From the IMG/VR virus record IMGVR_UViG_3300045988_097776: 64,000 nt of DNA, one strand, 5' to 3'. Numbering within the stretch: the stretch's first letter is position 1; the number at the start of each line of letters is the position of its first letter. Of the stretch, positions 17,622-57,319 are shown piece after piece. The translations under genes were made by a program, and so were the position numbers. The stretch is from a virus. A model generated the notes under the pieces. It was not told where the DNA came from. It did no database searches and saw only the letters and a program-made list of their open reading frames with translations.

Positions 17622-17736
17622 GATGGCGAAGCCTCCTATCTTATTTCTATAATTATATTATATCATTTTTAAATAAATTGGTCAAATTTTATTATTTATT
17701 TGTAAAGTTTTGTCAAATATAATAGGAGATGATAGA

Positions 17737-18450
17737 ATGAAGAAAACACATTGTATTTATATGCATAAAAACAAGATTAATGGGAAAATTTATGTTGGTC
17801 AAACATTTTAGGATAATCCTAATGCTAGATGGCAAAACGGGCATGGATATATAAAACAGCCAAAGTTTTTTTCAGATATTATAAAATACGGATGGATAAA
17901 TTTTGAACATATTATTTTAGAAGAAAACTTAACGCAATAGGAGGCGAATGAAAGAGAAAATTTTTGGATTCAATATTTTGATAGTTGTAAAAATGGGTAT
18001 AATACAATTTCAAAGAATAATAGATCAGAGGTATAGAAAAAAACAACAAATAGCCTTATTGTATGCTTAAATACAAATAAATCATATAAAACATTAAAAG
18101 AAGCGTCTTTGGATACCGGAGTTGATCCATCTGCAATTTCAAGATGTTATGGAGGATAGCGTAAAAGTGCAGGAATAATAAATGGTGTTCCTGGGTTTTG
18201 GATTTTAACAACATCGGATAAAAGCCTTATTAATAAAATAAAAAATAATTATAATGATGCTATAAGAAAGATAGTTTGTGTTGAGACTTCTAGAATTTTT
18301 AATTCTTTAGATGAGGTAATAGAATATTGTGGATTGCCAGTATCTTCTTCAAATAGAGCAAGATTAAAAAGTATTTTAAAATATAAGACAAATTCTTCTT
18401 TTGGGCGAGATAAAGAGTTAAATATAAAATTACATTGGAGTTATCTATAA
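17737..18450 (+). mobile_element. GIY-YIG homing endonuclease with two NUMOD-like HTH modules, 237 aa, 4 in-frame TAG
   Basis: N-terminus MKKTHCIYMHKNKINGKIYVGQTF[Q]DNPNARWQNGHGY (GIY...YIG...R...H...E). C-terminal repeats ...LKEASLDTGVDPSAISRCYGG[Q]RKSAGIINGVPGFWI... AGGAG RBS. Confidence 0.7.
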
Positions 18451-18521
18451 TTTGTAATAAGATTTGACAATCTAGTTTTTTTTTGTTATTATATGAGTAT
18501 AAAAAGGAGATGAACCAGTAT

Positions 18522-19568
18522 ATGATAAAATTAGACTATACGATTGAATCTCCCGAAGAGCGCAAGGCGCTTGTCGAAAAAATAATCGCAGAAAATCCTG
18601 ATTTAACTCCAGGTTATTTAGAAGTATTAGCAGATTATTTAGTTCTATGTATGGAGAAACAAGAGAAGAAAGAGAAGAACATATTGACTGATAACCGAAT
18701 GGCCACTGTCAATAAACGAGAATGTTCTTTTGAGGGACTCGCTTCATAGATGGAAAATGGCGAGGATGGCATTTATGGTTTAATGTCAGACAATAAAAAT
18801 GTTATATTTTAGCCAAAGATTTCTATTACACAAAAAGATTTAGATTCTATACCATGTTTAAAATAGTTGAGAGAAACCATTAATGCTTGGGAAGGTGCCT
18901 TGAAACGCGCCGCGGGAACGAAACAAGCTTATATGATGAAAAAAGCATTGATAGAAATGCGAAAAGATTAGTATATTATTAAATAGGCATATCAAAAGCC
19001 TATAGTTCCTTGTAAGCTAACAAGAAATACAAGAACACATATACCTCTTGATGATGAAAGTTATCTTAATGGATAGGAAGTAGTCGTTAAAGGTATTTCC
19101 TTAATGGATCCAAATGTAGTTTCTGCTATTTTATGCAATTATTCAAAATTAAAAGAAGATAGTTATGATTAGTTCGATGGGGATACGTGGTATCTAATTC
19201 AAGCGTTTGAAGAGATATGCGATAAAGCTCTTGAGGATTTTCCAATCTATTTACGAATTGTTGAGTTAAAGATTGATAAAAAGCAGAATAATGAGATATA
19301 GGAAATATTAAATGAAGAGTTCGGAAAAACATATAGCGTGGAATATATCTCCAGTTTATGGAGAAATAAAATTCCTAAATTGATAGCCGAAGCCGCCCTA
19401 GAGGATTTTTTATATTGGTAGTATAAAAACAGAAATTATCCAATGAAAAAATGTTCTAAGTGTGGGCAATTAAAGCCAGCTCATAATCAATTCTTTTCAA
19501 AAAATAAGACAAGTAAAGATAATTTATATAGTATTTGTAAGAAGTGTCGTAACAAGAAAAGAGGTTGA
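18522..19568 (+). CDS. putative late-gene transcription regulator (sigma-region-4-like HTH plus C-terminal zinc ribbon), about 348 aa, many TAG
   Basis: ...NEI[Q]EILNEEFGKTYSVEYISSLWRNKIPKLIAEAA resembles a sigma-70 region 4 HTH. C-terminus CSKCG...CKKCRNKKRG. The family assignment is tentative. Confidence 0.3.
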
Positions 19569-19573
19569 TTATA

Positions 19574-20746: not shown

Positions 20747-20748
20747 TA

Positions 20749-22494
20749 ATGGCGCTAAAAGATTTATTAAACCTCTCGAACAATAATAAAAAAATTGGAC
20801 TCTCAGAAGAAAGAGTTCGAGCTATAATTCCAGTTGCAAGATAGTATGTAGCATTTTGGAGAGAGTATCCAGATATGTTTATTGATTTCTTGTAGACTGG
20901 TGGAGATGAAACTAGGAAAAAAGAAATTAACTTTTATTTTTACTAGAGAGTTTTCTTGCGGGCCGCCATGCGATATAAGTATGTATACATGGTATTCCCC
21001 CGTGCTTATTCTAAATCATTTCTTTCTGTAATGGTGCTTATGTGTAGATGTATTTTATATCCTGGATGTAAGTTATTCATTACTTCTGGGGGAAAAGAAC
21101 AAGCTGCGGGAATTGCTAAAGAAAAAGTCTAGGAAATATGTAATGCAATCCCTGCACTCCAAAGAGAAATTGATTGGAGACGAGGCAAGACGCAGGAAGG
21201 AAAAGATTATTGTAAATATATCTTCAAAAACGGTTCCTACTTTGATAACGTAGCAGCTAGAGAATCCTCTCGTGGTAAACGTAGACATGGAGGACTTATT
21301 GAGGAGTGTGTCGGCGTAGATGGAGATATTCTAAACGAAGTTTTAATTCCTTTGATGAACGTTGATAGAAGATGTTTAGATGGCTCTGTTCATGAAGAAG
21401 AAACACTTAATAAATCCTAGATTTATGTTACTACTGCGGGATGGAAGAATACGTTCCCCTACAATAAACTTATTACTCTCCTTGTGCGCATGATATTAGA
21501 ACCAGAAAAGAGTATTGTTATGGGCGGAACATGGAGAATTCCTGTGTTAGTAGGATTGCAATCCCGCAATTTCGTATAGGAACTAAAATAGGACGGTACT
21601 TTTAATGAAGCTTCATTCGATAGAGAGTATGAATCTAAGTGGAGTGGAACTGTTGAAGATGCTTTCTTTAATGGAGATGCTTTTGATAGAAGTAGAAAAC
21701 TCCTTTAGCCTGAATATGAATCGTCTGGAAGATCTTCTGCACAGGCTTATTATGTTCTTTCTGTTGATGTAGGTAGAAAGAAATGTCAATCTGTTGTTTG
21801 TGTCTTTAAGGTAACTCCTTAGTCACAAGGACCTGCTATAAAGTCTTTGGTAAATATATATACTATGGACGATGAACATTTTGAAGATTAGGCAATTAAG
21901 TTAAAGAGATTATATTATAATTATAAGGCTAAGATTATTGTAATCGACGGTAATGGCCTTGGCGCCGGATTGATGGATTATATGGTTAAACCTTAGATAG
22001 TACCTGATACCAATGAAGTTTTTCCTGACTTTGGTGTAGCTAATGATGAAGATGGTGAGTATAAGCGGTTTAGGACAGAAAACACAGAATATGATGCCAT
22101 CTATGAAATTAAGGCTAACGCTCCTATTAATACCGAGGCGCATAGTAATGTTTAGACACAATTAAGAGCGGGAAAACTTAGATTTTTGATTGATGAAAAA
22201 GTTGCAAGAAATAAATTGCTTGGTACTAAAAAAGGTTAGGCTATGAAACCAGAAGAACGGGCAGAATATTTAAAACCGTTCACTTTAACTTCTATATTAA
22301 GAGAAGAAATGCTGAATTTGCGAGAAGAAAATGAAGGCGTGAATATTATTTTGAAACAAGCAAATAAATCCGTGCCTAAAGATAAATTCTCTGCGCTTGA
22401 ATATGGGCTGTATTATATTAAATAGGAAGAAGATAGTAAACGCAAGCGTAAAAGTAGAAGATTTTCAGACTTTATGTTTATGAGCGAGGTGTGA
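20749..22494 (+). CDS. terL: terminase large subunit, about 581 aa, about 14 in-frame TAG
   Basis: AAGGAGG RBS. The read-through product carries ...FYFY[Q]RVFLRAAMRYKYVYMVFPRAYSKSFLSVMVLM... and ...IVIDGNGLGAGLMDY..., typical of PBSX/Terminase_6-type large terminases. Sits upstream of the portal. Confidence 0.6.
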
Positions 22495-22496
22495 GT

Positions 22497-22853: not shown

Positions 22854-22870
22854 ATCCGGGAGGTGATATT

Positions 22871-24499
22871 TTGTTAAAGAGTAGACAAGAAAGTATTAGA
22901 GCCAAAGGTTTTGATTTATTAAATCAAGACGTTACTCGCTATTAGCAGCAAGAGGAAGAAGATGACTTAGATTATAAGAGCATTGATTATGCTAAGATGC
23001 GGGTGGGGCTTCGCTCGGTAGATGATGCGCTTATTAATCTAGGTACATATAAGAAAATAAATAGAAATTATGGAGATAAGAAGTTCGTATTAAATGCTAT
23101 TTATAAGCATGATTATAGAACTCTAAGAGAAATCTCTAATTATTTCTATGAAAGTAGCGGTATATATTACAGATTATGTAAATACCTAGCTTTCTTATAC
23201 AGATTTGATTGGTATATAACCCCATATACCGTAAGCGCGCAGAAAGATAAGGAGAAGTTATTAAAAGACTTTTCTAAAGTATTGCTTTATCTTGATAAAT
23301 CTAATATAAAGAGAATGTTTGGTAATATATCATTAGATATCATCAAAGAAGGGGCATATTATGGTATAATTGTTGACTTCGGAGATAGGTTTGCCATTTA
23401 GAAGCTACCTGCTTCATATTGTCGCAATAGATATTTCCAAGGCCCTAATCCTATTGTTGAATTAAATCTTGAGTTTTTTGATGTTTATTTCCCAAACCCA
23501 CAGTATAAGGTTCAGATATTAAAGATTTTTCCTCAAGATATATAGAAGGCTTATATTCTTTATAAGTAGGGGAAATTAAAGGGAGATTACCCGGGGAGTA
23601 CAACTGTTTGGTATCCTCTAGATCCTAGTGTTTCAGTTAAGTTTAGCTTAAACGATAATGAATTTCCCTTTCTTGCGGGAGTTATTCCTTCTATTATTGA
23701 TTTGGATTAGGCGCAAGAATTGGATCGTCAAAAAACAATGTAGCAACTATTGAAAATCATCATTTAGAAGTTGCCTCTTGATAAGAATGGTGATTTAATT
23801 TTTGACGTTGATGAAGCCAGAGATATTCATAATAACGCAGTTGCAATGCTTAAAAGAGCTATTGGAGTAGATGTATTGACAACTTTTGCGGATATTGAAA
23901 AAATTGATACAAAAGACAATAACTCCAATACAACAACCGACGATTTGGAAAAGGTTGAACGTACAGTTTACAACAATTCAGGTGTAACTCATAATTTGTT
24001 TAATGCCGATGGAAATATTGCTGTAACAAATTCTATATTGACTGATGAATCTAGCGTTAGAGATATACCTCTCATGTTTACAGAATTACTAAATAGAGTG
24101 GTAGAAAAATTCAATCGCAAGAATCATTATGAATTTAGAGCTGAGATGTTAGAAACAACATAGTTTAATTATAAAGAATTATCAAAGTTGTATAAAGAAC
24201 ACGCTCAGTTAGGATATTCTAAGATGTTGCCACAAATCGCTTTAGGGCATTCTCAATCAAGCATTTTAGCTACATTAACGTTTGAGAATGAAGTATTGAA
24301 CTTGGCGGAGATTATGATTCCTCCTATGAGTTCTAATACCAGAAGCGGAAAAGATTTGGGTAATAATAATTAGTCATCTAATACTAATTCTTAGAATAAA
24401 TAGACAAGTTCAACTAACAATAATGGAGCCGGAAGGCCAAAGAAGGAAGATGGCGAAAAGTCTGATAAGACAATAGCTAATCAAGAAAGTTCGTCATAA
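22871..24499 (+). CDS. portal protein, about 542 aa, many TAG
   Basis: Size and position after the large terminase; TTG start with GGGAGGTGA RBS. The three listed ORFs (22997, 23771, 24188) share its frame and join across TAGs. Confidence 0.5.
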
Positions 24500-24513
24500 A
24501 GGAGGGATTGAAC

Positions 24514-25767
24514 TTGCATATTAGTGTTCCTATTTTAAACACAATGGAATATATTTAGAACACTTAGATTTCTCCTCTAGTTAGCAAAGGCGTTTGTAAA
24601 GTTTGTTATGTCGGGCAACAGCCAAACCGCAATCATACAGTGATTACTAAGGAAGTAGCTGTAGAGATGGGGCGTAAATTGCCGGGAAGTCCTATTGTTG
24701 GCTATTTTAATCAAGAGACAAAGGATTTTGAAGGTCACAATAGAGCGATTGATATTAAAGACGGCAAGTTTGCTATTGTTGATGTAACAAGACCTTATGG
24801 ATTTGTTCCAGATAACGCTAATGTATGGTTTTAGAAGTTCAATGATGAAGGTGTAGAAAGAGAATATCTAGTTACTGATGTATATATTTGGACTGGTGTT
24901 TATCCAGAATCTAAGAGAATTTTAGAAAATGGAAACAACCATTCTATGGAATTAAATGAAAAAAATCAGTCAGGATTTTGGACAAAAGATGAAAAAACAA
25001 ATGAAAGAATCTTTATCTACAATGAAGCATTGATTGAGAAATTATGTGTTCTCGGAGAAAATGTTGAGCCTTGTTTCGAGGGAGCTCAATTTAGTTCTCA
25101 ATTTTCTTTAGAGGGTAATCAAGAGTTTTAGAAACTTAAAACTATGGTATACTCTATGATGGATCAATTAAAAGAAACTTTTAATAAAGGAGGCTCTCAA
25201 GAACCTATGGATAATGAGAATAAAGCACTTACCGAATTCGAGAAAAATAATCCTAATCCAGAGGATAAAAACAAGGAGAAAGAAAATTCTTCTGGAACTC
25301 CTGCCCCTGAGAAAGAGGGAAAAGAGGATAAGGATAAGAAAGGCAAGTATAATCTCGAAGATGTAACTGAATATACAGAGTTGCTTGCTAAATTTAATGA
25401 ATTAGAGAGTAAATATTCTGCTCTTGAGCAAGAGAAGAATACTCTAGATACCGAAGTTGCTGAATTGAAAGAGTTTAAGCTCAAAGCTGAACGTCAAAAT
25501 AAGCAACAAATGATTGATAGTTTCTATATGCTTAGCGATGATGATAAGAAAGACGTCGTGGAGCATATTGACACTTATTCTTTAGATGATATTGAAGCTA
25601 AGTTATCTATTCTTTGTGTTAGAAATAAGGTAAACTTTAACCTTGAGGATAAACATGAAGAGGATGATAAGACCCCAAAAGGACTTTTCAATTTGGAGCA
25701 TCCAGAGACAGATAATGTTCCTGATTGGGTAAAAGCAATTCGTGAGACTGCTAAGAGCAGTATTTAA
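24514..25767 (+). CDS. prohead protease/scaffold fusion candidate (N-terminal globular domain plus C-terminal coiled-coil scaffold), about 417 aa
   Basis: The listed ORFs 24640 and 25144 are in one frame joined by TAGs. The C-terminal half is a Glu/Lys-rich coiled coil (EFKLKAERQNKQQM...), typical of scaffolds. The gene lies just upstream of the capsid genes. Confidence 0.45.
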
Positions 25768-25780
25768 GGAGGATTAAAGA

Positions 25781-26470
25781 ATGGCTAAGAGTTCTAAAAG
25801 ATTAGGTAATGCTACTTTTGTCCAATATGGATATGGTCAAGTAGAACCAAACCATCTTTCCGCTCCAAGAAATGGTCAGGTATATGCCCAGCTTCCTGCT
25901 GCTAGCACAATCACCCTTCTTGAGAATGGTCAATTCGTAAAGTATGACTATGCTAAGGGTGTATGTGATTTTAGCACAGAGGCTACTTCTGGTGCTTGGA
26001 TGATGGTATTCAATGAGGTAAAAATTTATAGAGATCGTGAGACTGATGCCGATTTTGCTATGATTAAAGATAACTATAACGCTCGTGTTTATAGCCCAAT
26101 CGGACAGACCGTTTCTACACTCGCTACCATTAATGACTATACTGGTGAAGCTGTACGTGAAGGTAGTAACGTAGCATATAAAAAGAATATGGAAACATTT
26201 ACTTATCCAGCTTTGATGCCAGAAGGAACTAAAATGGTTCCACGTGTAATTAAGATTAGTATTGGTGATATTTGGACAACTAATACTATTAAGGCTGATG
26301 CCGGTTCACTTGCTGTTGGAGATCGTTTAAAGATTGGTACTGATGGTTATTTAACCGAGGATACTGAATCTTCTGCTAAGGGTGGAGATTTAGATCCTAT
26401 CTTTACAGTAGTAAAAGTATACACCATGCCCGATCTTCAACCCGGTGTAAAAGTACAGCGTGTAGGTTAA
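25781..26470 (+). CDS. capsid-associated protein (decoration or minor capsid protein), 229 aa, no TAG
   Basis: Lies between the scaffold and the major capsid gene. Ends with TAA and contains no TAG. Confidence 0.35.
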   Translation: MAKSSKRLGNATFVQYGYGQVEPNHLSAPRNGQVYAQLPAASTITLLENGQFVKYDYAKGVCDFSTEATSGAWMMVFNEVKIYRDRETDADFAMIKDNYNARVYSPIGQTVSTLATINDYTGEAVREGSNVAYKKNMETFTYPALMPEGTKMVPRVIKISIGDIWTTNTIKADAGSLAVGDRLKIGTDGYLTEDTESSAKGGDLDPIFTVVKVYTMPDLQPGVKVQRVG

Positions 26471-26489
26471 TTGGAAGGAGTGAAGAAGA

Positions 26490-27542
26490 ATGTTAGATAA
26501 AGCTAATTTACTTAGTTTAATGAAGACTGTCGCCAATGCAAATCCTTCTGGTACCTATAGCTATCAAGGAGAATCCTTTAGCTACGACGCTTTGAACACC
26601 ACTTTGCGCAATGAGTTAAATGAGCTTGTTGGCACAGATGAACTTTATAGAGAAAATAAACATACTCTATTCTCTTTAATTGAGCAAACTATGGATGAAG
26701 TTGTTCCTAATCGTTTACTCAATTCTTATGGCAATTTTGCCGAGATTAGAACTTTCGGACAGGGAGATAAACCTGTATTTACTCGTAGAACTGGACTTAC
26801 CCGTGCTAAGCAATTCATCACTCGTGTGGGACTTGCTGGCGTATACGAGACCTTTAAGCTCGGTTCTGAGAGCTTCGAAGTTGGTACAAGTGCTATCGGC
26901 GGAGCTGCTCGTATCGGATTCGAGGAGTTCCTCGACGGAAGAGTAAACTTCGCAGAACTTACTCAGATTGTAACTGAGGGTATGCAAGAGCTTATTTATA
27001 GAGAGATTGCTCAAGCTCTTATGGGTTCTATTAATCAGCTTCCCGCGGCAAACCGTTGTGCCGTTGCTGGTTTTGATGAAGCTACTATGGATTATCTTGT
27101 AAATACTGCTAGTGCTTATGGTCAGCCCACTATTTACTGTACTCGTGAGTTTGCAGTAAAGATGATTCCAGACAACGAGGCTTGGATTTCTGATAACATG
27201 AGAGATCAGTATTGGGGAACTGGATACCTTGCTAACTACAAGGGAACTAGAGTGGTAATTCTACCTCAAACCCTTGAGGATGAGACTAACTCTAGAAAGA
27301 TGATTGACCCTGGTTATGCTTGGGTTATCCCCGGTGGAGCAGATACTCGTCCTGTTAAAGTTGCTTTTGAGGGTACTACTCACGTGCGCGAGCGCGATGA
27401 TAACGACGACTGGTCTCGTGATATTCAGGTTTACCGCAAGGTCGGAGTTGGCGTAATGATGGCAAATAACATTTTCTCTTACGTTGATACTGAACTTCAA
27501 GGTGAGCTTGATAATACTAACCCAAATCCAAATAATGGTTAA
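26490..27542 (+). CDS. major capsid protein, 350 aa, no TAG
   Basis: Size, position after the scaffold, a strong terminator directly downstream, and complete absence of TAG codons (highly expressed). Confidence 0.55.
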   Translation: MLDKANLLSLMKTVANANPSGTYSYQGESFSYDALNTTLRNELNELVGTDELYRENKHTLFSLIEQTMDEVVPNRLLNSYGNFAEIRTFGQGDKPVFTRRTGLTRAKQFITRVGLAGVYETFKLGSESFEVGTSAIGGAARIGFEEFLDGRVNFAELTQIVTEGMQELIYREIAQALMGSINQLPAANRCAVAGFDEATMDYLVNTASAYGQPTIYCTREFAVKMIPDNEAWISDNMRDQYWGTGYLANYKGTRVVILPQTLEDETNSRKMIDPGYAWVIPGGADTRPVKVAFEGTTHVRERDDNDDWSRDIQVYRKVGVGVMMANNIFSYVDTELQGELDNTNPNPNNG

Positions 27543-27544
27543 TT

Positions 27545-27580
27545 AAAAGGGGATAGGGAAATATCCCTATCCCCTTTATT
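27545..27580 (+). terminator. rho-independent terminator after the capsid gene
   Basis: AGGGGATAGGGA-AAT-ATCCCTATCCCCT followed by a T-run. Confidence 0.7.
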
Positions 27581-27603
27581 TATTGAGAAAAAGGAGATAT
27601 AAT

Positions 27604-28140
27604 ATGAAAGATAAGTGTATTGTTTATAATAAAAGTGCGGGCCGCGCGGTATATAAACTGCCTGAGCTTGGTGTACGTCGTATGTTCTATCCAGGTGAGC
27701 ATAAAGAGATTAGTGTATCTGAGCTTGAAAAGTTGGTTCAAACACCCGGAGGCCGCAAGCTGATTTATAATTATCTATTAATTGATGATAAAGAAATTAT
27801 TGAATATCTTATTAATGGGAAAGTTGAACCAGAATATTGGTTAAAAGAGAAAGATATTGATTCGTGGATGCAGTCATGCTCTTTGGATGAATTCAAGGAT
27901 GCTCTTGATTTTGCCCCTGATGGGACAAAAGATTTGATTAAGGCTCACGCGGTTTCTCTTCCTTTGAATGATATTTCAAAGCGAGATGCGATAGAAAAAC
28001 AATTAGGTTTTAACGTTACTAAAGCGTTGGAATTAACCGCGGACGAAGGAAAAAATTCTAAAAATGAGGTTAAGCCTGTTAGAAGAGCATCGGTTGCAAG
28101 TGATGATACTCCAAAGCGTAGAGTAACTATATCCGAGTAA
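27604..28140 (+). CDS. hypothetical structural protein, about 178 aa
   Basis: AAAAGGAG RBS plus ATG at 27604; no TAG codons. Confidence 0.4.
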   Translation: MKDKCIVYNKSAGRAVYKLPELGVRRMFYPGEHKEISVSELEKLVQTPGGRKLIYNYLLIDDKEIIEYLINGKVEPEYWLKEKDIDSWMQSCSLDEFKDALDFAPDGTKDLIKAHAVSLPLNDISKRDAIEKQLGFNVTKALELTADEGKNSKNEVKPVRRASVASDDTPKRRVTISE

Positions 28141-28159
28141 GATAAGGGAGGTTATAGCC

Positions 28160-28976: not shown

Positions 28977-28986
28977 GTAATAAAAG

Positions 28987-29979: not shown

Positions 29980-29991
29980 GGGGTGAAATTA

Positions 29992-32679: not shown

Positions 32680-32685
32680 TCTAAA

Positions 32686-32722
32686 GGGAGGACTTAATGT
32701 CCTCCCTTTTTCTTTTTATAAG
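32686..32722 (+). terminator. rho-independent terminator
   Basis: AGGGAGGAC-TTAAT-GTCCTCCCT followed by TTTTCTTTTT. Confidence 0.7.
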
Positions 32723-34173: not shown

Positions 34174-34236
34174 ACTTGACAATAGTTAATTTTTCTAGTA
34201 TAATAAAAATATAAATGAGATAAAGGAGATTTTACA

Positions 34237-34767
34237 ATGACTTTTAAAGATTTGGGGCTTGAGCCTAAAGTTAAATATACAGAAGTAAAGGTTGGAGCAG
34301 ATAAGATTTTGTCTGTGGCTAATTATCTTCCTATTGCTGATAAAACAAATCTTATTATGTTTGTCACTGATTTATCAATAGATGAGGCAACTGGCTGTTT
34401 TAGTCCAGTTAGAGTGGAGACCTATTTTGCTATTGCTATATGCAGATGGTATGGCGGAATTACTTTTGAGCCAGAAGATGTGCATGAAAATATCGCAAAA
34501 ACCTATGACACTCTTGAGACAAACGGTGTAATTGATGCAATTCGTGATATTATTCCGGTGGAGGAACTATCTTTTATTGAGGATTTAGTTAAGGATACTA
34601 TAAGCGATATTTCAAGATATAATAGTTCTGCGGCCGGCATTATTCAGATGATGAATAAAAATGCTTCTGGTCTTGATACATATATTACTGATATGCTAGA
34701 AAAGATTAAGAATGGTGAAAATCTTGAAACACTATCAGTAATTAAAGATGTGGTTGGAAAAGATTAA
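34237..34767 (+). CDS. tail assembly chaperone candidate, 176 aa, no TAG
   Basis: Acidic protein immediately upstream of the tape measure. Confidence 0.45.
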   Translation: MTFKDLGLEPKVKYTEVKVGADKILSVANYLPIADKTNLIMFVTDLSIDEATGCFSPVRVETYFAIAICRWYGGITFEPEDVHENIAKTYDTLETNGVIDAIRDIIPVEELSFIEDLVKDTISDISRYNSSAAGIIQMMNKNASGLDTYITDMLEKIKNGENLETLSVIKDVVGKD

Positions 34768-34802: not shown

Positions 34803-34838
34803 TAAAAGGCTCTTGAGAAGATATAATTCTCAAGAGCC
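34803..34838 (+). terminator. rho-independent terminator
   Basis: AGGCTCTTGAGA-AGATATAAT-TCTCAAGAGCCT followed by a T-rich stretch. Confidence 0.6.
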
Positions 34839-34877
34839 TTATTTGTTTTATCGTAGAGATAAAGGAGGAAAAGGACT

Positions 34878-43577: not shown

Positions 43578-43628
43578 TAGGGGAGAAAATCTCCCCTATT
43601 ATTCCCTATGAGTAAAAGGAGGAAGAAT

Positions 43629-46600: not shown

Positions 46601-47549
46601 TTCTTCCGGCAAGATAGGTGGTACAAAAACTGGGTCTAATGGTTGGACTATTGAAACCAATAGACTGTATAGCGGTTCTGGTTCAACAAGAGTCGAATTG
46701 AATAGCCAGTCGCCTACTAATACATCTACACCTACAAATAATAATGATTTTGCTATGTGGGCTGGTAGTGCAACTGCTTCAAGCGCTAAGTTTTCTGTCT
46801 CTAAAGGTGGATTAATTACTGCTAAATAGGGAAATATTGGAGGATGGATTCTTTCTTCTAATAAACTTACTAGCGATAATTACAGAACCGGTATAGCAAG
46901 TTCAGGAACTTATCGTTTCTGGGTTGGAGCTAGTTCTAGCAGCACAGCAGATAGACCTGTTTTCTCTGGTTCTTCTTATTTTTATGTTGCCAGTTCAGGT
47001 GAGATGTAGTGTAAAAATGCAACGATTAATGGCTCTATTTATGCAGACGATGGCGAAATCGGCGGGTGGACTATTAGTCCAAGTAGAATCTCTGGAGGCG
47101 GAACCACTCTATATTCAAATGGTAGGATTGTATGTGAGGATTTTGAATCTGATAACGTAGATATTAGTGGAGATATTAATGCGACTACTTTAACCTGTGA
47201 TAATGGCGAAATCGGCGGGTGGACTATTAGTGAAGATGGATTAGAGAATGGTACTACAAGATTGTTTAACGGCTTAGTATAGACAGAATAGGTGCAAATA
47301 TATTATAATGATCATGGTCGCTGGAATACTTATCTTGGATTTTTAGGATATGTACCAGGTAGAGATGATGATGGTGTTACTGACAATATTGGTATTAGGA
47401 CACTTGATTAGGGATAGAGTATTATTCTTTAGTCTGCAAGAAATATAGCTTTAAATGCTGAGGGAGCAGGTATCTGGGTAAATGCAGAAAATTTCAACAT
47501 GAATGTACCAAAATCTGGATAGAAAGGTATTTATGCCTAGTTTGCATAA
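43629..47549 (+). CDS. large tail/baseplate structural protein, about 1300 aa
   Basis: One frame stays open from ATG 43629 to TAA 47547 when read through TAGs. The C-terminal part carries repeated G-x-I-G-G-W-x-I motifs typical of phage distal-tail or fiber proteins. Confidence 0.45.
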
Positions 47550-47562
47550 GGAGTGATTATAT

Positions 47563-48303
47563 ATGGGTTCTGTAACCTTACACTCTCCCTCTTATTCTAG
47601 TGTTGGATAGAGATATGCTTCAATAAGTTGTACTGCGGTAGGATGGGTATATCCAAGCGATTCTGGAACAACCACAACCGGAGATAGTAAAAATGGTTCT
47701 AGAACTACTATCTCTTATAGTAATACAGTATGGAGTTGGAGTTTTAGTGATGGAGGAACTTCTAGCTCTAAAGAACCAACTCATACCTTTACTGGTTTAA
47801 CTGCGGGCAGGGCAAATACGGTAAGAGGGACGTTGAGTGCTAGATGCACAAAAACCACTACTGTAACTAGATGGTCCACTCATAGACAAGAGGTTGGAAA
47901 AGACGAAAATGGAAAACCAATTTATGAAGATGTAACAACAACAACTGGTCCAACTACATCTAGAACAACAGTTAGCTTAGGTTCTGCATCAGATAGTGTA
48001 ACTGTATATACGCAACCAACTGGTTTTTCTTTTGGATGCAGTCCGGGGGATTATATAGCGGATTATGCCACCGCAGCTAACTGGAATGAATTAGCTGATT
48101 AGGTTGGTAAATATAAAAGTTGGCGCAGTCAATCAAGTTAGTATTCTTCATATGATTATTTGAAAGTTTCAAGTGGAGATTGGATAACCGCAAGCATTTA
48201 TAATTCTATGGCATCTGCCTGCGGGACTTCAAAAGTTACTGCGGATAAAACTTTGATTAGCGCTGCATTATTTGAAGCACTAGCTGACGCAGTTTCGCCA
48301 TAA
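47563..48303 (+). CDS. tail-associated Thr/Ser-rich protein, about 246 aa
   Basis: TAAGGAG RBS; 3 in-frame TAG. Confidence 0.35.
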
Positions 48304-48323
48304 GAGAAAAAGGAGTTTTAATT

Positions 48324-48695
48324 ATGAAAATGTCAAACAAAGATATTTTAGAAATAACCGAGGGATTAAGCAGTATAGTTCAAGATCGATCATGCCTTCC
48401 CGCGAGTGTGTCATATTCGGTAATAAGAAATTTTAAAATTCTTTCTTCTATTGCTGAGGATATTTATAATGAACGTAAGAAAATTATTGAAAGATATGGA
48501 GAACAGGTAGACGATATTACTTATTCAATCCCAGAGGAGAAAAGAGATGCGGCGAATAAAGAACTAAATGATTTACTGGCTGTAAATACTAGCGTTCCAT
48601 TAGCTACCTTTTCTATTGATATTTTGTAGGGGTATGATATTCCTTTAAAGGTTATGAATATTCTATACTTTATGGTGGAGGCTGACGAGGAATAA
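48324..48695 (+). CDS. hypothetical protein, about 123 aa
   Basis: The listed ORF continues through one TAG to TAA, which lies inside the terminator hairpin GGCTGACGAG-GAATAAAA-CTCGTCAGCC at 48671-48710. Confidence 0.35.
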
Positions 48696-48780
48696 AACTC
48701 GTCAGCCTTTTGGCCAATTATCTTTATTAATGATATAAGATTTTTTAAATATCTTAGATGAGAAAAAGGAGGCGTTAACT

Positions 48781-51573
48781 ATGCCAATTAGTATTTACCC
48801 ACCTACTTTGTAGAGTACATAGCCAGCGTTTCTAGCCAGCGTAAATGTATATCAAATCTATTTTACCTTACAGTCAATTACATCTTTTAATGATATAGGA
48901 CATATATAGGTAAGAATAGTGCGTTAGTCGAATAATAAAAGCATTGTTAATACAAATCAATACCCAGATGGAACAATCTATAAAGCGCCTTCCGCTATTG
49001 GCTCTCTGGGCAATTAGTATTTTGTATCAATCAATAAAAATGAATTGTTCGAATCTTGGTAGCCAGGGTATTTATATAAAGTGCAGATGCGCTTTGGAAT
49101 TAATCCTATGTATACCTCGGTAGATGAATTTGCAACATGGAAACAATAGCAAATAGATGAAGGAGCTTTCTCTGAATGGTCTACTGTAATGGTAATTAAA
49201 GCGATAGATACTCCGACTATTATTATAGAAAACGACGAGGCAAAGCGAGAAGATGTTATATCTACAGAACGAGTAGAAGCAACTTTAACACCGCTATTTA
49301 TTGGCAGTTACAAGATTGAATCTAGTAGTAATGAATTATTGGATAAATATAAATTTGATTTATACAAAGGTTCTTCGTAGGATCTCAGTGATTTAATCGA
49401 AAGCTCTGGGTGGATCTAGCATAATGGCTCTATTAATAATACAGATACTCATAGATTTAAAACAGTATTAACTAATAGTGAAGATTATACTGTTGTGTAC
49501 TCTATTATTACCGTCAATGGTTATGAGGGAGAGTCTGATTAGTATAATTTTTCTGTTAGTCGAACTTATCTAGGTGATTTAGAAGGAGTATCTATAAGAG
49601 TTGAAGATAGCGATATATATTGCAAAGAGAATGGTTGTATAAAGATTTTTTGCACAGCAAAAGATGGATTAAGTGGAAGTTATGTAATAACTAGAAGTTC
49701 AGAGAAAGATAATTATTAGATATGGGAAGATTTGAAGTATCTTAAATTTTCTAATTAGGTTTTGAACGATTCACTAATCTATACCGATTTTATTATTGAA
49801 AGCGGAATTAGATACAAATACGCTATATAGCAAGAGAACTCCGCAGGATTGCGGACTTCCTAGGTATATGAAACCTCTAACCAAGGTCGTAGTGTTGATT
49901 TTGAGCACAGCTATATTTATAGAGATGGAGTATAGTTAAAACTATCACTCAATCAAACCTTATCCAGCTTTAAACATACCACTTTAAGAAGTAAATAGGA
50001 TACTTTAGGAGATAAATACCCTCATTTAATTTAGAATGGTAATGCTTACTATGCAGAATTTCCTATTTCTGGTTTGATTAGTTTTTAGATGGATGAATAT
50101 TAGACATTCTTCTCTCTAGATGATGATGGCCTTTATTATAATGGCAAACTTGCAATCCCAGAAGATAAGTTTACTATCAAAAATGTGGTTAGAGGAAAAT
50201 GTCAAGAGAGATAGACAACTCATTCAGAAGTCTCAACTAATGAGAGTAAATTATCTATTTCAACTGATTTAACAGATGATAATGTTTTCATTGAAAGAGC
50301 TTTTAGAGAAAAGGTAGAAGAATTTTTAAATGATTTTAACTATAAATTATTTAAGTCTCCAACCGAAGGGAATATAGTTATAGGCTTGCTTAATATTTCT
50401 TTGACTCCGAATAATACGGTCGGCCGCATGCTCTATTCTTTTTCTGCTACGGCATATGAAGTATTAGAGAACACCATAGAAAATTTAAATGAAGTTAATA
50501 TAATTGATATTGGTGAATTTGAGAGTTTAGCAAGCGAAGATAGAATAAATTCCTTTGGGCAGATAAGCGGAATTTATGGTCGAAATATAGACTTATACGC
50601 AAAGATAAGAGAATAGGAAGAGGTTAGCATAGGTGGAGGGTATAAACTAAACTTAGTTTAGGTTACTGATATCCTAGTTGAACAATACCCAAAGATAGAT
50701 CTAACCGCGTAGCTACTAGAATTAGAAGCTCTTAGAGCGGAAGCCGCAGGTAATGAAGAAGATACTTCTGAGTATGATAGATAGATTGAGGAATGTGAAA
50801 ATTTAATTCTTGCTCTTAATGGGCCTGAATCTGCGACTATTGAAATTAATGTTAATGGTTCAAGGATCTTAGTTGCACCAGGTAGAATGTATCATTTAAG
50901 TGAGAATGTTAATTCTCTATCTCTATCTGCATCAACAGTTCCTATTATTGTGAATTATGTTTGTCAGTTAAATTAGGTTGAAGATGTTTCAGTGGGAGTT
51001 GTTTCTGCTATTGAGGCTTCTCGTATTTGGGGTTAGATTTCTGGAATATTTACAGGAACAGATGGTGTTTTAAAGTTTTATAACTATGATTATAAGAATA
51101 GTGACACATATCGCATATTTAGTAATGTTCCTGCGAATATAGAAAAATTTCTAGTTAGGGATAAACAAGGAGATATTATTGTTGATAATACGACTTTTAA
51201 TCTATATAAAACGGTAAATATCTACGAGATAATAAAAGAAGAGACACAAAAGCAAGTTGAGCTTATATATAATACACACTTTGAATTAAGTAGCGATGGA
51301 CAGCTAACAGACGGAGAGATTTATTACACTTTTAGTGATATTACTTTGTTCGATATAGAAGCAGACGAAGGAACTACTATTCTTCTTAGCTCAAATGCTG
51401 ATGGAAGTAATCCTATTACTGTAAAAATCGGTCCCACAGGGAGATATACACTTAACCCATTGGATAATATGATTAAATATATCGCTCTAGAAAGCGCTCA
51501 ATTCTGTGTAATAAACTATAAGTGTTTAACAAATCAAATGCGTATGAAGGTGGAATAGTATTATGTTTGATTA
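48781..51573 (+). CDS. baseplate/tail structural protein, about 930 aa
   Basis: AAAGGAGG RBS. The listed fragments 49189, 50386 and 51346 are in its frame; about 45 in-frame TAG. Confidence 0.4.
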
Positions 51574-53467
51574 TTTAAACGATATGGAATTTCTTACTGC
51601 CCTTGATAAGTTAAACATTAAAACCCATTATGCGAAAATTATTTTGCTTTCTTTCGATGAAAAACCTATTAGAGAGATACAAGGTCGCATAACAGCAGGA
51701 AGTTTAAGTGTTAATGGTTCATCTTCAGTGCGCAGAACAATTAGTTTAACTATGCTAGCCGATGGAAATAATAGCGATATAGAGAATATAGATAACGAGA
51801 TTTCGATAAACAAAAAGGTTAAAGTGTTTGTTGGATATAATAACCCCTTAAGATCTTATTCTAGTTATGGAGATATAATTTGGTTTCCTTGCGGACTATT
51901 TGTCTTGTCTAATGCATCAATAGCAAGATCGACTTCTGGATGGACAATTTCTATAAATGGAAAAGATAAGATGTGTTTATTAGATGGAACTGCGGGAGGT
52001 ACCTTTCCAGGTTCTATTACCCTCCATGAAAGTTACATATAGAAGAATGATGGAGATATAGAGATTGTATATCCGACCATATTCCAGATTATATATGAAG
52101 CGGTAAACCACTGGGGAGGGGAAGCTATAGAGAATATAATTATTACAGATATAGAGGAAACCTGTAAAATGTTGGTTAAGTATATTGGTGACAAACCAGT
52201 ATATTTTAGTAATAATTATGAGAGTATGGATTTCTCTCCCAGCTCAGACTTCCCGCATATGGTAAGCTATGGATAGGATGCTGGATATAAAGAAACAGAA
52301 TTTACATATCCCGGTGAATTGATTTTAGATGCTGGTGATACTGTAACTGCATTACTAGATAAGATAGTGGATGTTCTTGGAAATTTTGAATATTTCTATG
52401 ATATAAACGGTCGTTTTATCTTTTAGGAGATAAAGAACTATCTTAATACTGGAAGCCCTTTAACTGAACTTACGCCAGCAAACTATGTAAAGAGTTATAA
52501 TAATGCTAAATTCTTATATTCTTTAACCGAGCTTGATACCACGACTGCGATAACCCGCAGTCCAAAGTTTGATAATATTAAAAATGATTTTTATGTTTGG
52601 GGTAAAAGAAAAACTACATCTGATGTAGAAGTGGACATTAGATACCATTTAGCTATTGATACCAAACCTATTATAGATTTGGCTGGGTATTATATGTGGG
52701 CTATTAGTGATAAAGAAACTGGACTAATAGTAAGATATGATTTTAATAATATAGCTAGTGATTACTCTGTATCTGGATATGAAACAAAATTAATCGGGTC
52801 TCCATGTGATGAGTGGCGAGAAGAGCTGTACCGTAGAGCATTAAATGCGCAGGTAACTAATAGCGTATATGATAACTACTATGATTCCGAATTAATCGCG
52901 GAATGGCGTAATTTATATGATCCATTGAATGAGAAATGGGATGAATACGATCATTGGAACCCTGATGTTTTTAACAATCCAGAAAATTTGAACTATTGGT
53001 TAGATTTTATAGATACGGGTTCAGAGATGGGAAAATATTCAATAAATGAAATAGGCAGAAGGACTAAAGTGGTTAATGGTTCTGATATAACTTCCGTATA
53101 TAATATGGAAGCCCCTGATATTATTTTTATTGAAGGACTTGATTAGGACTTGATAGCAGAATATCGAGGGATAGGTTAGAGATTTTTTGTTCTTACTTCT
53201 GAATACTATGATTTATTTTCAATAAGCTCTACTAATGCGAGTTGTTTTGATAAGATTAGAGAAATGTTGTATTAGAATTTAAATTATAATACAACCATAT
53301 CTATTACTTGCTTACCAAAGTATTATATGGAGCCAAATAATATTCTCTATATTGAAGATAAAGATAGCGGCATTAGTGGAAATTACTAGATAACTCAGTT
53401 TACTTTGCCTCTTGCTTATAATGGAACTATGAGCATTACTGCAACGGAAGTATTAACGAGAGTATAA
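51563..53467 (+). CDS. baseplate/tail structural protein, about 634 aa
   Basis: Joins the listed ORFs 51563 and 52631 across TAGs. Confidence 0.4.
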
Positions 53468-53483
53468 GGAGGAGTAGGAGATA

Positions 53484-54074
53484 ATGCCAACTGTTGGTCA
53501 AGTATATTATAATGTAATAGATAATAACAGTGGTAGCTACGTCTCTAGTGGGTAGAATATATTTAGTGATATTATTGCCTAGGTAGGAGCCTCTCAATTT
53601 AATAAAGTTGGGGTATAGGCTCCTGCCGGCACAAAAATAGTTATGAATGAATCAAAGACTATTATGGTTGGTAGAACTGGAATATATGAACTAGATGATG
53701 ACATAGCTATTACTAATATGTATTTTATTAGACCTAGAAAGTATGAAAAAGATGAAGAAGCCTCCTAGTAGGCGATTGAGTAGGGAACTGAAGGAATGTA
53801 GGCTGCGGATAAAAAACGAGCAGACGATTTGGAACAATTTTATAAAGAAAATCCAGTTATGCCAGACCCGGATACAGATCCAGAGGGATATAGAGCTTAC
53901 TGGGATTCATATAATAATATTTAGACTACCTATATAGAGGCTTATTAGACAGCATTAAGTTTGTATAATTAGGGTGTAAACGGTATATATGTGTTACCCA
54001 ATCCTGATAATATTGATGCTCCAGAGAACTATTAGGATTTGTATAATGTTATTATTGATTTTATCTATGTATAA
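53484..54074 (+). CDS. tail structural protein, about 196 aa
   Basis: AAGGAGG RBS; several TAG. Confidence 0.3.
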
Positions 54075-54088
54075 GGAGGTGTCAAACT

Positions 54089-55999
54089 ATGGAAAGTTTC
54101 TATGGAGGACCTAAAGGTAGAGATTTTGATATTAAGGAAATCTTTACTAGCAAATATTAGATGGATAGAGATTTATCAAAGGGTTGGACATCTTCTATCT
54201 TCCCAGGTGATCTCGTTGTTGTATCATATGGTTTGCCAAGCGATACAAACTATGATATTTATAAGAATGAAGATTTATAGAATTATGGGAAAAGCTATAA
54301 CTCTACTCTTTGGCAAAAATGTTATAATGATAAAGATGGAAGCGGATCTGCGGGCGGCCTATACTATAAGATGATAGCTTCCATGACTGGTAATACACCA
54401 AGAATTAGCTTAAATGACACAGAAGTCTTGGATGCAGATGAAGATCCAAACGTGGTTTGGGATAATACCGATCTAGATAGACTTTGGCTTACTTTTCAGT
54501 TACCATAGAGTTAGAATATCTAGTTAGGAGAGACTACTATTCTGGATTGTAATGAACTTCCAGAAGCGTCTTTAGACACGACCGATATAAATAATCCTAG
54601 CTTAAAGTTGTCCTTACCGCAATCTTAGGTAATTAATACTGCATTAGTAGAATTATTAGATGTAGGTGAAAATCCAAGAGTATCTTTAGAAGTTTCAGGA
54701 GATTATTCTATCAACAAACCGGCAATTAAGTTTTATCTACCTGTATCTTAGTCATTATAGGAAGGTATTACTACAACTTTAGATGCTAATGAAAAACCTA
54801 GATTTGAAATAAATTTTGATGATATAAACAATCCAATTATTAATTTCTTCTTGCCTCAAAGTTAGGTGATGGGAGATCCAGAAACTACGGTAGTGGGACC
54901 CGAGGAGAATCCATCTGTAGTAATGGATGATTCGAATATTAATGCGCCAGTATTGAAATTTAGTTTACCAGAAGCGGTTAAATTTTACTATGGCGAGTTA
55001 CTAGGCGAGAGAACAGAAGGAACTTACGAAGAAACTAATGATTCTTTTGTGGATTATAATGTTGGTGATTATTACATTAATGCACCAACCGGTTTTATTT
55101 ATAAAGTAATCAATAAAACTGGAACCACTTGTACTTTTTAGTATATAGCTTGTATTTAGTCTCCTCTTCCTACTATAGAAGTTACAGAATTAAAGCCATA
55201 TACAGATAAAGGTTCTGAGTTTGAGCCGACAATTCCTACGGTTACAAGGGAGTTTACTAACGAAGAACAAACTGCCTGGAAGCTAGTTTTTGGGCTGCCA
55301 TCCGCGGTTAAATACACTACTTCATTTGCTTTTGTTGGAATTGACGAAACTGGCTCTGTATCCAATGAAATTACAGCAGATGACACTATAAATATTGATT
55401 TTAAGATTCCTAGAGGATCAAAATTATACTCTGGAACTTAGATTTCTGATTCAACAACATCTACTGTTATTGAGGGTGCGAAAGCTGGAGATTTATATTT
55501 AAATACAGAAACCGGAGATATATATGAATTAAATTCTTCTGGTATATGGGAGAAAAATTCCGGCAATTTAAAAGGCCCTGTTGGCGAGGCTCTTAATATC
55601 GTTAAGAGCTACACAATAAATGAGACAGACACGCTAAAAGATTCTTTATAGAATGGTGTAGATTATATTGAAGAAAACTATGATGGAGAAATTAGCGCGT
55701 AGGATATTTTCTCTATTACGTGGGTAGAATATGAAACTAACCAAGAAACTTCTTACTGGTATTATAAAGCCGCAGATGGAGTGTGGGGAAGAGTCTAGCT
55801 AACCGGAGGTATTGCTAACCTTATTGATAATGATTATAATAATGAAGATGGTGGAGAGGTAACAAATAAAACTTATAGCGTTCATTATATCAACACTTTA
55901 ATCGGTGGAGCTATTACAAATAAAGATAGATAGACATATTCTGCCGAATAGATAGAAGAGTTGTTATCTTGGGGAAGTTTTAGTGATTTAATACCTTAA
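54089..55999 (+). CDS. tail fiber / receptor-binding protein with tandem repeats of about 40 aa, about 636 aa
   Basis: Repeated units …NNPSLKLSLP[Q]S[Q]…, …NKPAIKFYLPVS[Q]…, …NNPIINFFLP[Q]S[Q]…, …NAPVLKFSLPEA… AAGGAGG RBS. Confidence 0.4.
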
Positions 56000-56032
56000 T
56001 TTATATTTAGAGAGTATAAAGGAGGGCCTAAA

Positions 56033-56815
56033 ATGGCTTTATTTAAGATTTTTCGAGGACCAGAAGATAATTTGAATAGTGTACCTCTTCATGAAGGATA
56101 CGCTTATTTCACAGAAGATAAAGGAAATCTCTTTATTGATATTAGTAATGAAGAAGGTGGGCGTTTGCAGGTAAATGCCTATGCTGCTCAAGTTCTAAAG
56201 AATGATATTACTGAGATTGATATTGATGATATTTTTCTTAAAAATATGACTGCCACTGTAGCTCAGGGCGGAACTGGACATAATAGTCTAACTGTAAATG
56301 CTTTATTAATTGGTAATGGAACTAATGCGGTAAAGATGGTTGAAATTGAGGCTGGTTAGGTTGTTATCGGAAATAGCGAGAATGGTGTAACAGGATTGCA
56401 AGGAACTGGCGCTTTATTTGCCGCTACAGCTGGCGCTCCGCAATTTGGAACGCTTCCAATTTCAGTTGGTGGAACTGGGGCAATTAATGCAGCAGGGGCG
56501 AGAACTAATTTAGATGTGTATAGCAAATTGGAAACAGATAACTAGATTAGTGGAAGTACTACGGCAGCTTATCCAGCAACTCTTTCTGCATCAGGTTGGG
56601 TATTAAATGAAGATATGTATACATATACTTATTCCAATACTTCTTTAACTTGCGGAAAAGCAGGTAATGTGCCACCTATTATTAGTTATACTTCTAATCT
56701 TGAAGAGTATAGTAAAATTGATCACGCTGATGCATCAGTTGGGGTTGGAATTACCTTTTATACAAAAGAAAAACCAACAAATGATATTGCTATTATTATC
56801 ATTGATGTAAAATAA
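56033..56815 (+). CDS. tail fiber protein, about 260 aa
   Basis: …TVAQGGTGHNSLTVNALLIGNG… and …LPISVGGTGAINAAGARTNLDVY… match the widespread phage tail-fiber GGTGA…AAGAR…NLG motif. Last gene of the plus-strand late operon. Confidence 0.6.
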
Positions 56816-56862
56816 AAAAAATGGGGAGAACCTTGAAATTAAGGTTCTCCCCATTTTTTTTT
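56811..56862. terminator. bidirectional rho-independent terminator separating convergent transcription units
   Basis: A9-GGGGAGAACCTT-GAAATT-AAGGTTCTCCCC-T9. Confidence 0.75.
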
Positions 56863-57319
56863 ATTTCTCGCAAGGAGGTTTACTATATAAATGATAATGC
56901 GGTTTTTCTTCTCCAAACCATTTCCATCTTAGGTAGTCGTCTAATACTATTGCCAAAAGGCTTAAAAAGAACCAGGCGATAGAGAATGGTAAACAAATCT
57001 ACCCCATAAAATTCAATGGAACGTGAGAATAATCCCAAATACCTAAGCCTAGTTTTACATTTAATACTAGACCAAAGATTAATTCTAAAGCAGTTATGAT
57101 TAAAGAGCCTTTTACTCCTTGAGTAAGAATAGATTCTTCCCAAAGAACGTTCTCATTCATTAGTCCTATTAATAAAAAGCATAAGCCGCCCAATAAGAAC
57201 ATAGACCAATGACAAGTTCCAAAGCTGATAAAAGTTTTATAGAGGAACTCTATACCGTAATATAGAGTTCCTCCAACTGCAAATAGAATTATATTTTTAC
57301 TCACTGTCGGTATCTTCAT
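56861..57319 (-). CDS. integral membrane protein (about 4 TM), 152 aa, 1 in-frame TAG
   Basis: Listed ORF 56999-57319 continues through a TAG to TAA 56861. Hydrophobic segments FAVGGTLYYGIEFLY, MFLLGGLCFLLIGLM, IITALELIFGLVLNV and FSIAWFFLSLLAIVL. Confidence 0.5.

Follow-up and report, generated by a model that had tools for sequence, protein, structure and literature searches.

In the 64-kb stretch (64,000 nucleotides) of the IMG/VR virus record IMGVR_UViG_3300045988_097776 analyzed here (hereafter, the window), the genes for the putatively most abundant virion proteins avoid TAG, a codon that is the majority glutamine (Gln) codon in the rest of the same late operon. The window comes from a TAG-to-Gln (code 15) recoded phage, and its late genes are numbered g1 to g28, all on the + strand. 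When TAG usage was conditioned on Gln codons, which removes the effect of amino acid composition, TAG accounted for 0 of the 40 Gln codons in g8, g9, g10, g16 and g18, compared to 308 of 564 (55%) in the other 23 late genes (Fisher p = 9.7 × 10−14). The probable cause is translational selection that purges a costly, suppressor-decoded codon from the genes with the highest expression, i.e. ordinary codon optimization. The late genes and adjacent signals on which this analysis centers are the following.

17710..57009, + strand: late operon, 28 tightly packed genes (g1-g28) with PHROG matches, readable only with TAG as sense.
20749..22494, + strand: g4, probable large terminase (TerL), 14 TAG codons, 61% of its Gln codons.
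22871..24499, + strand: g6, portal protein (phrog_2739, 2.4 × 10−80), 11 TAG codons, 41% of its Gln codons.
24508..25767, + strand: g7, putative protease/scaffold protein (phrog_3313), 4 TAG codons.
25781..26470, + strand: g8, uncharacterized, just upstream of the capsid gene, TAG in 0 of 8 Gln codons.
26490..27542, + strand: g9, major capsid protein (phrog_4088), TAG in 0 of 13 Gln codons.
27546..27577, + strand: terminator-like hairpin with a 14-bp stem, directly 3' of g9.
27583..28140, + strand: g10, head-region protein without an assigned function, TAG-free, just 3 Gln codons.
31285..32679, + strand: g16, virion structural protein (phrog_2729, 3.9 × 10−56), TAG in 0 of 15 Gln codons.
32683..32709, + strand: terminator-like hairpin with an 11-bp stem and a T-run, directly 3' of g16.
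32737..34173, + strand: g17, more TAG-dense than any other gene of the window, with TAG at 25 of its 478 codons and 71% of its Gln codons.
34176..34204, + strand: promoter-like site upstream of g18, a perfect 12/12 match to the sigma-70 consensus (TTGACA-17-TATAAT).
34237..34767, + strand: g18, putative tail assembly chaperone, TAG-free, just 1 Gln codon.
34806-34840, 3' of g18: 14-bp hairpin able to form on either strand.
34878..43577, + strand: g19, tape measure protein (TMP) of 2,899 amino acids (phrog_34405), 103 TAG codons, 51% of its Gln codons.
43608..56815, + strand: g20-g27, distal tail, baseplate and fiber genes with 32, 3, 1, 27, 7, 11, 17 and 2 TAG codons, respectively.

Three of the TAG-free genes, g8, g9 and g16, are significant individually (P for zero TAG of 0.002, 3.5 × 10−5 and 7 × 10−6, respectively; 0 of 36 Gln codons jointly). 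In the window, g10 (0/3) and g18 (0/1) do not reach significance on their own. The C-terminal half of g7, a coiled-coil region (amino acids 216-419), is also TAG-free, with 0 of 6 Gln codons, and all TAG codons of this gene are located in its N-terminal half. The TAG-rich late genes include, by descending count, those for TMP (103), g20 (32), g23 (27), g17 (25), g26 (17), TerL (14), portal (11) and g24 (7). A preliminary description of this DNA had stated that the capsid, scaffold-domain, major tail and chaperone coding sequences lack TAG and that the terminase, portal, TMP, baseplate and fiber genes carry it, and these counts bear it out, except that the single Gln codon of the chaperone-like g18 lends its zero count no individual significance in the window.

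The code reassignment itself was established as follows. On the + strand, open reading frames (ORFs) of at least 100 amino acids total 14.3 kb under the standard code (code 11) and 49.7 kb when TAG is read as sense, compared to 17.5 kb when TGA is read as sense, which served as the control for code reassignment. Between 17700 and 57010 (+ strand), ORFs cover 0.39 of the sequence under code 11, but 0.98 once TAG is read as sense (0.42 for the TGA control). At the alignment columns that contain TAG in the window, orthologs from diverged relatives have Gln in 36% of the cells, a 10-fold enrichment, and TAG itself in 12% (13-fold), all other residues being enriched at most 1.3-fold. Thus, TAG encodes Gln. 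Programmed stop readthrough, as in Q-beta A1 or retroviral gag-pol, employs one defined leaky stop in a stimulatory context and yields two products in a set ratio; here, 308 in-frame TAG codons are spread over 23 genes, with a downstream context no different from that of other G-ending codons (p values below), which does not fit this mechanism.

The 64-kb window contains no tRNA genes. One tRNA(CUA), with 59.8 bits against the Rfam tRNA model, was found in four contigs of the window's clade, inside a tRNA cluster; the capsid proteins of these contigs are 96-97% identical to that of the window. An Rfam scan for ribozymes and other RNAs, covering the window and the flanks of the suppressor tRNA in the relatives, yielded tRNAs only, in the relatives. 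The decoder of TAG is probably a suppressor tRNA(CUA) that the phage encodes outside the window. In the first 3,200 nucleotides of the window (1-3200), ORFs on the + strand emerge solely when TAG is read as sense (coverage from 0.13 to 0.62), overlapping − strand ORFs are TAG-free (0.54), and no homology matches were obtained for the ORFs of this segment.

The window is part of a siphophage of approximately 130-165 kb that uses TAG for Gln and belongs to a gut clade of phages similar to phAss-1 and SPbeta. An IMG/VR contig of 163.6 kb (L002) is nearly identical to the window, with 13 nucleotide differences in the capsid gene. The tblastn matches to the g9 capsid protein include annotated major capsid proteins of Bacillus phages; its identity with the phAss-1 capsid protein is 51%, and with those of Enterococcus EF1-like (SPbeta-like) phages, 38%. 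Orthologs of g3-g15 are found in the same order in the relative L001 (synteny of the head and connector module), and the suppressor tRNA of the window's clade is close to phAss-1 Sup-CTA_2. The phage phAss-1 (OQ749652.1, filed under "Caudoviricetes code 15 clade") is a human-gut phage of about 136 kb with SPbeta/EF1-like relatives that reads TAG as Gln and carries 3 tRNA-Sup-CTA genes (Babkin et al. 2023, PMC10607447). The three members of the genus Phassvirus proposed for it share 80-86% nucleotide identity genome-wide (PMC10607447), whereas a megablast search with 24 kb of the late operon gave no match among deposited phages, and protein identity between the window and phAss-1 is 31-51%; the window is therefore outside this genus, as a relative.

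To the comparison, we brought 31 IMG/VR loci along with phAss-1, each represented by the capsid gene and 10 kb on either side, with 51-100% capsid identity; all these loci are recoded, to a varying degree. TAG shares were counted in nine diverged representatives outside the window's immediate lineage (capsid proteins 51-81% identical). Across the nine, TAG is found in none of the Gln codons of g8 (0/84), g9 (0/115), g16 (0/52) and g18 (0/31), in 4 of 50 in g10 and 8 of 89 in g7, and makes up 11-43% of the Gln codons in the remaining genes, the depletion being significant in each lineage tested (p = 0.026 to 3 × 10−6). At 51-81% capsid identity, synonymous sites are saturated, so that lack of time cannot explain the absence of TAG. 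Together with the conditioned counts in the window, the relatives lead us to reject chance and low Gln content as causes. The comparison with related recoded phages that the preliminary description had called for thus repeated the avoidance in nine of them, and extended it to the chaperone-like g18.

In close relatives, the capsid gene shows single CAG-to-TAG changes, at amino acid 240 in L006 and at amino acid 313 in L007 and L008, which represent two independent events. The existence of such variants indicates that the capsid gene is translated while the suppressor is active. Apparently, this gene can tolerate a TAG without retaining it, as weak purifying selection would predict.

The avoidance of TAG is one component of a shift across the whole codon table. 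Codon shares in g8, g9 and g16 (TAG-free) and in the bulk of the late genes compare as follows.

GAG: window, 0.56 TAG-free vs 0.32 bulk; relatives, 0.65 vs 0.32.
AAG: window, 0.57 TAG-free vs 0.32 bulk; relatives, 0.89 vs 0.40.
TTC: window, 0.50 TAG-free vs 0.20 bulk; relatives, 0.60 vs 0.28.
AAC: window, 0.36 TAG-free vs 0.16 bulk; relatives, 0.40 vs 0.23.
CAG among CAG and CAA: window, 0.47 TAG-free vs 0.22 bulk; relatives, 0.78 vs 0.29.

Seven of the nine two-fold families are shifted in the window (p < 0.05), and the shifts are far stronger in the relatives; four-fold families, Ile and Arg are likewise shifted. ATA accounts for 0 of 57 Ile codons in the TAG-free genes vs 279 of 891 in the bulk late genes, AGG is absent, and G-ending four-fold codons are missing from 6 of 8 families (GCG and GTG being used at 0.06 and 0.10), with CGT, GCT, TCT and CTT favored. 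In the same three genes, the TTG:CTG ratio for Leu is 7:0, whereas TAG:CAG is 0:17, so that the avoidance is specific to TAG and does not reflect a general preference for C in the first position. A preference for C-ending two-fold and T-ending four-fold codons, with ATA and AGG avoided, characterizes the most highly expressed bacterial and phage genes, and capsid genes are the most host-adapted genes of phages. The codon shift of g8, g9 and g16 thus has the appearance of the classical signature of highly expressed genes; the preferences are those of classical translational selection, with the difference that the disfavored set here includes a stop codon of the host. All three genes, as well as g18, have strong Shine-Dalgarno sequences and ATG starts, and these, along with the hairpins after g9, g16 and g18, may be independent signs of high output.

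The higher overall GC content of g8, g9 and g16 (0.39-0.42 vs about 0.33) speaks for a mosaic or compositional origin of the pattern, whereby these genes would be recent arrivals from a standard-code phage, or else just GC-richer or Gln-poor. However, the GC excess is found in codon positions 1 and 2 (0.47 vs 0.38) and reflects amino acid composition, GC content at third positions being 0.24-0.33 (0.30) vs 0.25 in the other late genes. Furthermore, 36 Gln codons are present in the three genes without a single TAG, the synteny and identity profiles of the TAG-free genes match those of their neighbors in all relatives, and the TAG-free state is clade-wide. The synonymous shift is not due to base composition alone, and an origin of this kind is very improbable.

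In siphophages, capsid, scaffold and tail-tube proteins are present in hundreds of subunits, the portal in 12 and TMP in few copies, and terminase is not part of the virion; from the 2,899 amino acids of TMP, a tail of about 430 nm is predicted, which would contain hundreds of tube subunits. Gene order and codon bias suggest that g8 is an abundant decoration- or scaffold-like head protein and that g16, which follows the connector genes and lies upstream of the chaperone-like gene and TMP, is the major tail (tube) protein. A Pfam search with g8, g9, g10, g16, g17 and g18 gave no matches, and neither did PDB sequence searches with g8, g9 and g16. The AlphaFold2 (AF2) model of g16, built on a shallow alignment, has a confident beta-rich C-terminal domain and a mean pLDDT of 60 overall, and that of g8, from a similarly shallow alignment, is poor (mean pLDDT 56); Foldseek comparison of both with viral models retrieved unannotated relatives only and did not confirm tail-tube or decoration folds.

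Under translational selection, translation of the early genes would precede the build-up of the suppressor, which keeps these genes readable in the standard code, as in the published model (see below). With the suppressor present, TAG would behave as an ordinary Gln codon in most late genes, and AT-biased mutation of CAG to TAG would drive it to about 55% of Gln codons. The most-produced proteins would be those of g9 (capsid), its upstream partner g8 and g16 (putative major tail protein) and, to a lesser degree, g7, g10 and g18. A codon for which a single phage tRNA competes with release factor 1 (RF1) of the host would be translated more slowly and occasionally terminate, at a cost that scales with expression, such that TAG would be purged along with ATA, AGG and the G-ending four-fold codons. 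What we infer in this scheme is that g8 and g16 are highly expressed and present in many copies, that competition with RF1 is costly, and in which direction causality runs; with respect to the latter, the bias across the whole codon table makes the loss of TAG look like a consequence rather than a cause of high expression.

Several points weigh against this explanation. It is gene order and codon bias that suggest the copy numbers of g8, g16 and g18, and the relatives do not count as independent phylogenetic samples. Among the remaining late genes, a codon-adaptation score does not correlate with TAG share (rho = −0.12), so that the effect is confined to the top class plus g7, where TAG takes a smaller share than in any other TAG-bearing gene (0.24 in the window, 0.09 in the relatives). 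The nucleotide following in-frame TAG (+4) is less often T than that following CAG (p = 0.004), but does not differ from that following G-ending codons overall (p = 0.07 in the window and 0.49 in the relatives), so that no clear footprint of RF1 competition is seen. Finally, in the relatives, TAG share differs among TAG-bearing genes (chi-square p = 2 × 10−12) and correlates weakly with that in the window (rho = 0.52, p = 0.07), so that some selection on individual genes may act outside the top class as well.

The latter differences also favor active dosage control, in which the TAG load would be a selected attenuator: ribosomes would be lost to RF1 at each TAG, and the suppressor level would set protein ratios, keeping TMP, terminase, portal, baseplate and fiber proteins scarce and high-copy proteins unattenuated. 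Yield would indeed fall steeply with the number of TAG codons, the computed completion at 99% readthrough per codon being 36% for TMP, 90% for the portal and 100% for the capsid protein, and selection that enriches or depletes recoded stops by gene family has been proposed (Borges et al. 2021/2022, bioRxiv 10.1101/2021.08.26.457843). Against such control, TAG shares among TAG-bearing genes of the window (0.24-0.79) are nearly homogeneous (chi-square p = 0.02, the low value of g7 being the main departure) and follow no gradient by expected copy number (TMP 0.51, TerL 0.61, portal 0.41, fiber gene g27 0.29). The TAG/CAG ratio in these genes, 5.6, falls between the Leu ratios TTG/CTG (7.3) and TTA/CTA (3.3), so that TAG occurs at the neutral frequency set by AT bias, with no excess that needs explanation. 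The 103 TAG codons of TMP follow from its length and 7% Gln content, without a raised TAG share, and the TAG-free genes differ across the whole codon table, beyond TAG. Dosage control is therefore rather unlikely. The preliminary description had linked TAG usage to expression class; this link stands in that early and highest-copy late genes lack TAG, in relatives as well, whereas the notion of TAG density as a stoichiometry dial is not supported, given that the pattern is essentially binary. It is, likewise, unlikely that TAG load is a selected, gene-specific translational rheostat tied to the level of the suppressor tRNA, in which the sigma-factor-like g2 would gate late transcription on the suppressor and attenuation of low-copy initiators and enzymes would scale with their TAG counts, with mass-produced subunits exempt. 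The only hint of a rheostat lies in the differences in TAG share between TAG-bearing genes, significant and partly conserved in the relatives; if it existed, one tRNA would control when virions are assembled as well as the stoichiometry of their assembly.

A temporal program within the late phase was also considered, whereby translation of the TAG-free structural genes would run ahead of the suppressor or not depend on it, and building blocks would accumulate first, with the TAG-bearing initiator and completion proteins made only once the suppressor is abundant. The relevant features are the early-type genes and g2.

3219..15946, − strand: early-type block of small genes (AbrB/SpoVT-like, PTH2, PARG-like, exonuclease), GC-richer.
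11519..11830, − strand: AbrB/MazE-like gene (phrog_4681 over amino acids 26-87), one TAG at amino acid 50.
14760-15197, − strand: PTH2-type peptidyl-tRNA hydrolase (Pfam, 1.9 × 10−23), in a TAG-free block.
15182-15946, − strand: microbial-type PARG domain protein, adjoining the PTH2 gene.
16505..17335, − strand: FolD homolog (PF02882, 1 × 10−35; PF00763), 7 TAG codons, of which 5 fall where the ORF aligns with Pfam.
17283..17621, − strand: 112-amino acid ORF with 3 in-frame TAG codons and a promoter-like site at 17685-17657.
18483..19568, + strand: g2, sigma-factor-like (phrog_5767, 1.6 × 10−38), 9 TAG codons.

The compatibility of the early genes with the standard code supports such a program. 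Over 3000-16500 (− strand), ORFs cover 0.63 of the sequence under code 11; reading TAG as sense raises this to 0.75, less than the 0.81 reached with the TGA control, and the early block is code-neutral and essentially compatible with the standard code. The program is also favored by the promoter-like site of g18, which, flanked by this site and a hairpin, looks like a transcription unit of its own amid the tail genes, and by the 9 TAG codons of g2; if g2 is a late sigma factor, late transcription itself would depend on the suppressor tRNA. A promoter-like site at 18464-18492 (+ strand; 11/12 sigma-70 match, extended −10 TG) precedes g2. However, g8, g9 and g16 are embedded 13-19 nucleotides from TAG-bearing neighbors, with no promoter-like site of their own above background, and the TAG variants of the capsid gene in close relatives would be lethal without the suppressor. 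The codon bias of these genes is of the high-expression type, and their preference for T-ending four-fold codons sets them apart from the early genes, which are merely GC-richer at third positions. Such a late-phase program is thus quite improbable. The preliminary description was accurate in that the early region is mostly independent of TAG and that folD, an AbrB-like gene and 17283-17621 contain it (the first two inside recognized domains), but the TAG-bearing "rep" gene that it listed was not found among the early ORFs tested; the part of its interpretation that concerns early vs late timing is the already published model of Borges et al.

The AbrB/MazE-like gene is the only gene found in the early block that needs readthrough within a recognized domain, and the ORF at 17283-17621 has no family match. 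One early ORF (13655-14170, − strand) ends at a TAG under the standard code (146 amino acids) and gains 25 residues, up to a TGA, with TAG as sense, so that its product possibly changes once the suppressor is active. A link between the phage PTH2 and ribosome drop-off at UAG is a matter of speculation.

Turning to the other late genes, g4 is the probable large terminase on account of a weak match to phrog_38 (E = 0.00087, 19 bits) and its position immediately upstream of the portal gene, with only the small gene g5 in between; its strong PHROG matches are to families of unknown function. The PHROG match of g14 is a virion structural protein, and g24 and g27 match tail and fiber proteins. Between the putative tail tube gene g16 and g18 sits g17, which has no family match in PHROG or Pfam; its homologs contain 6-20 TAG codons and are present only in the nearer relatives (L003-L013), being missing from the more distant ones. 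Two genes of the homing-endonuclease type, both TAG-bearing, lie within the late operon.

17710-18450, + strand: g1, GIY-YIG endonuclease (PHROG match), 4 TAG codons.
22491-22853, + strand: g5, HNH-type homing endonuclease between terminase and portal, 3 TAG codons.

Downstream of the operon, a complete diversity-generating retroelement (DGR) with the canonical gene order occupies 57959-61988 on the − strand.

57959-59176, − strand: DGR reverse transcriptase (Pfam RVT_1), 3 TAG codons.
59483-59585, − strand: template repeat.
59616-60110, − strand: Avd-like ORF.
60206-60308, − strand: variable repeat, within the target gene.
60192-61988, − strand: target gene with Big_3 and DUF6273 domains, 9 TAG codons.

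The two repeats are 103 nucleotides long and 83% identical, with 18 of 18 mismatches at template adenines on the coding strand, and the DGR genes likewise require TAG readthrough.

The window resembles phAss-1 in its syntenic head module, 51% capsid identity, related suppressor tRNA and TAG-free capsid gene (0 of 15 Gln codons in our count of phAss-1). The differences are that phAss-1 is a distant relative, with 30-50% amino acid identity in most genes, and that TAG makes up about 19% of its Gln codons vs 55% in the late genes of the window; phAss-1 additionally carries tRNAs reading CAG, AAG and GAG. The paper on this phage lists TAG-bearing ORFs, without an analysis of expression-linked avoidance, and names TerL and TMP as recoded among four signature proteins, the capsid protein not being listed (PMC10607447). 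In the model of Borges et al., early genes use the standard code, structural and lysis genes are recoded, and a phage suppressor tRNA enables the switch; these authors measured the preference for TAG vs CAA/CAG by family and report enriched families only, among them lysis genes and a crAss-like tail tube gene (bioRxiv 10.1101/2021.08.26.457843). The putative tail tube gene of the window, g16, is TAG-free, the opposite of the latter, and the depletion in the most abundant virion proteins that we see in this clade was not reported in that study.

A precedent is an amber-reassigned genus of Crassvirales from Egypt, in which the major capsid gene "shows no alternative codon usage", a pattern credited by the authors to pressure for efficient translation (bioRxiv 10.64898/2026.08.21.746148). 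That case concerns the capsid gene alone, in one genome; the phage belongs to an unrelated order and infects Bacteroidota and, unlike the present analysis, the case comes without conditional statistics, clade-wide replication or a link to the whole codon table. In ciliate nuclear codes, reassigned UAA and UAG are common codons whose use drops in highly expressed genes, which has been read as possible translational inefficiency (McGowan et al. 2023, PMC10553269). Ciliates differ in being eukaryotic, with an altered eRF1 and no competing release factor, and in showing a graded reduction, in contrast to the complete absence from a few genes in the window. Thus, a TAG-free capsid gene was already known in recoded Crassvirales; what is new here is a different clade, several high-copy genes and the bias of the whole codon table, and the finding involves no new kind of mechanism.

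For recoded phages, the load of TMP bounds the efficiency of suppression: with 103 TAG codons, its computed completion is 0.5% at 95% readthrough per codon, compared to the above 36% at 99%, which implies a readthrough per codon of roughly 99% or better. In gene calling, TAG-free genes inside a recoded block are to be expected and are no sign of a code switch or chimeric assembly. The absence of TAG can serve as a cheap, sequence-only marker of the highest-copy virion proteins in uncultured recoded phages, and flags here g8 and g16, two genes that lack a functional annotation. Taken together, these observations suggest that a reassigned stop is not fully equivalent to the canonical codons, in that the costly codon is removed from the most-expressed genes, a pattern replicated clade-wide.

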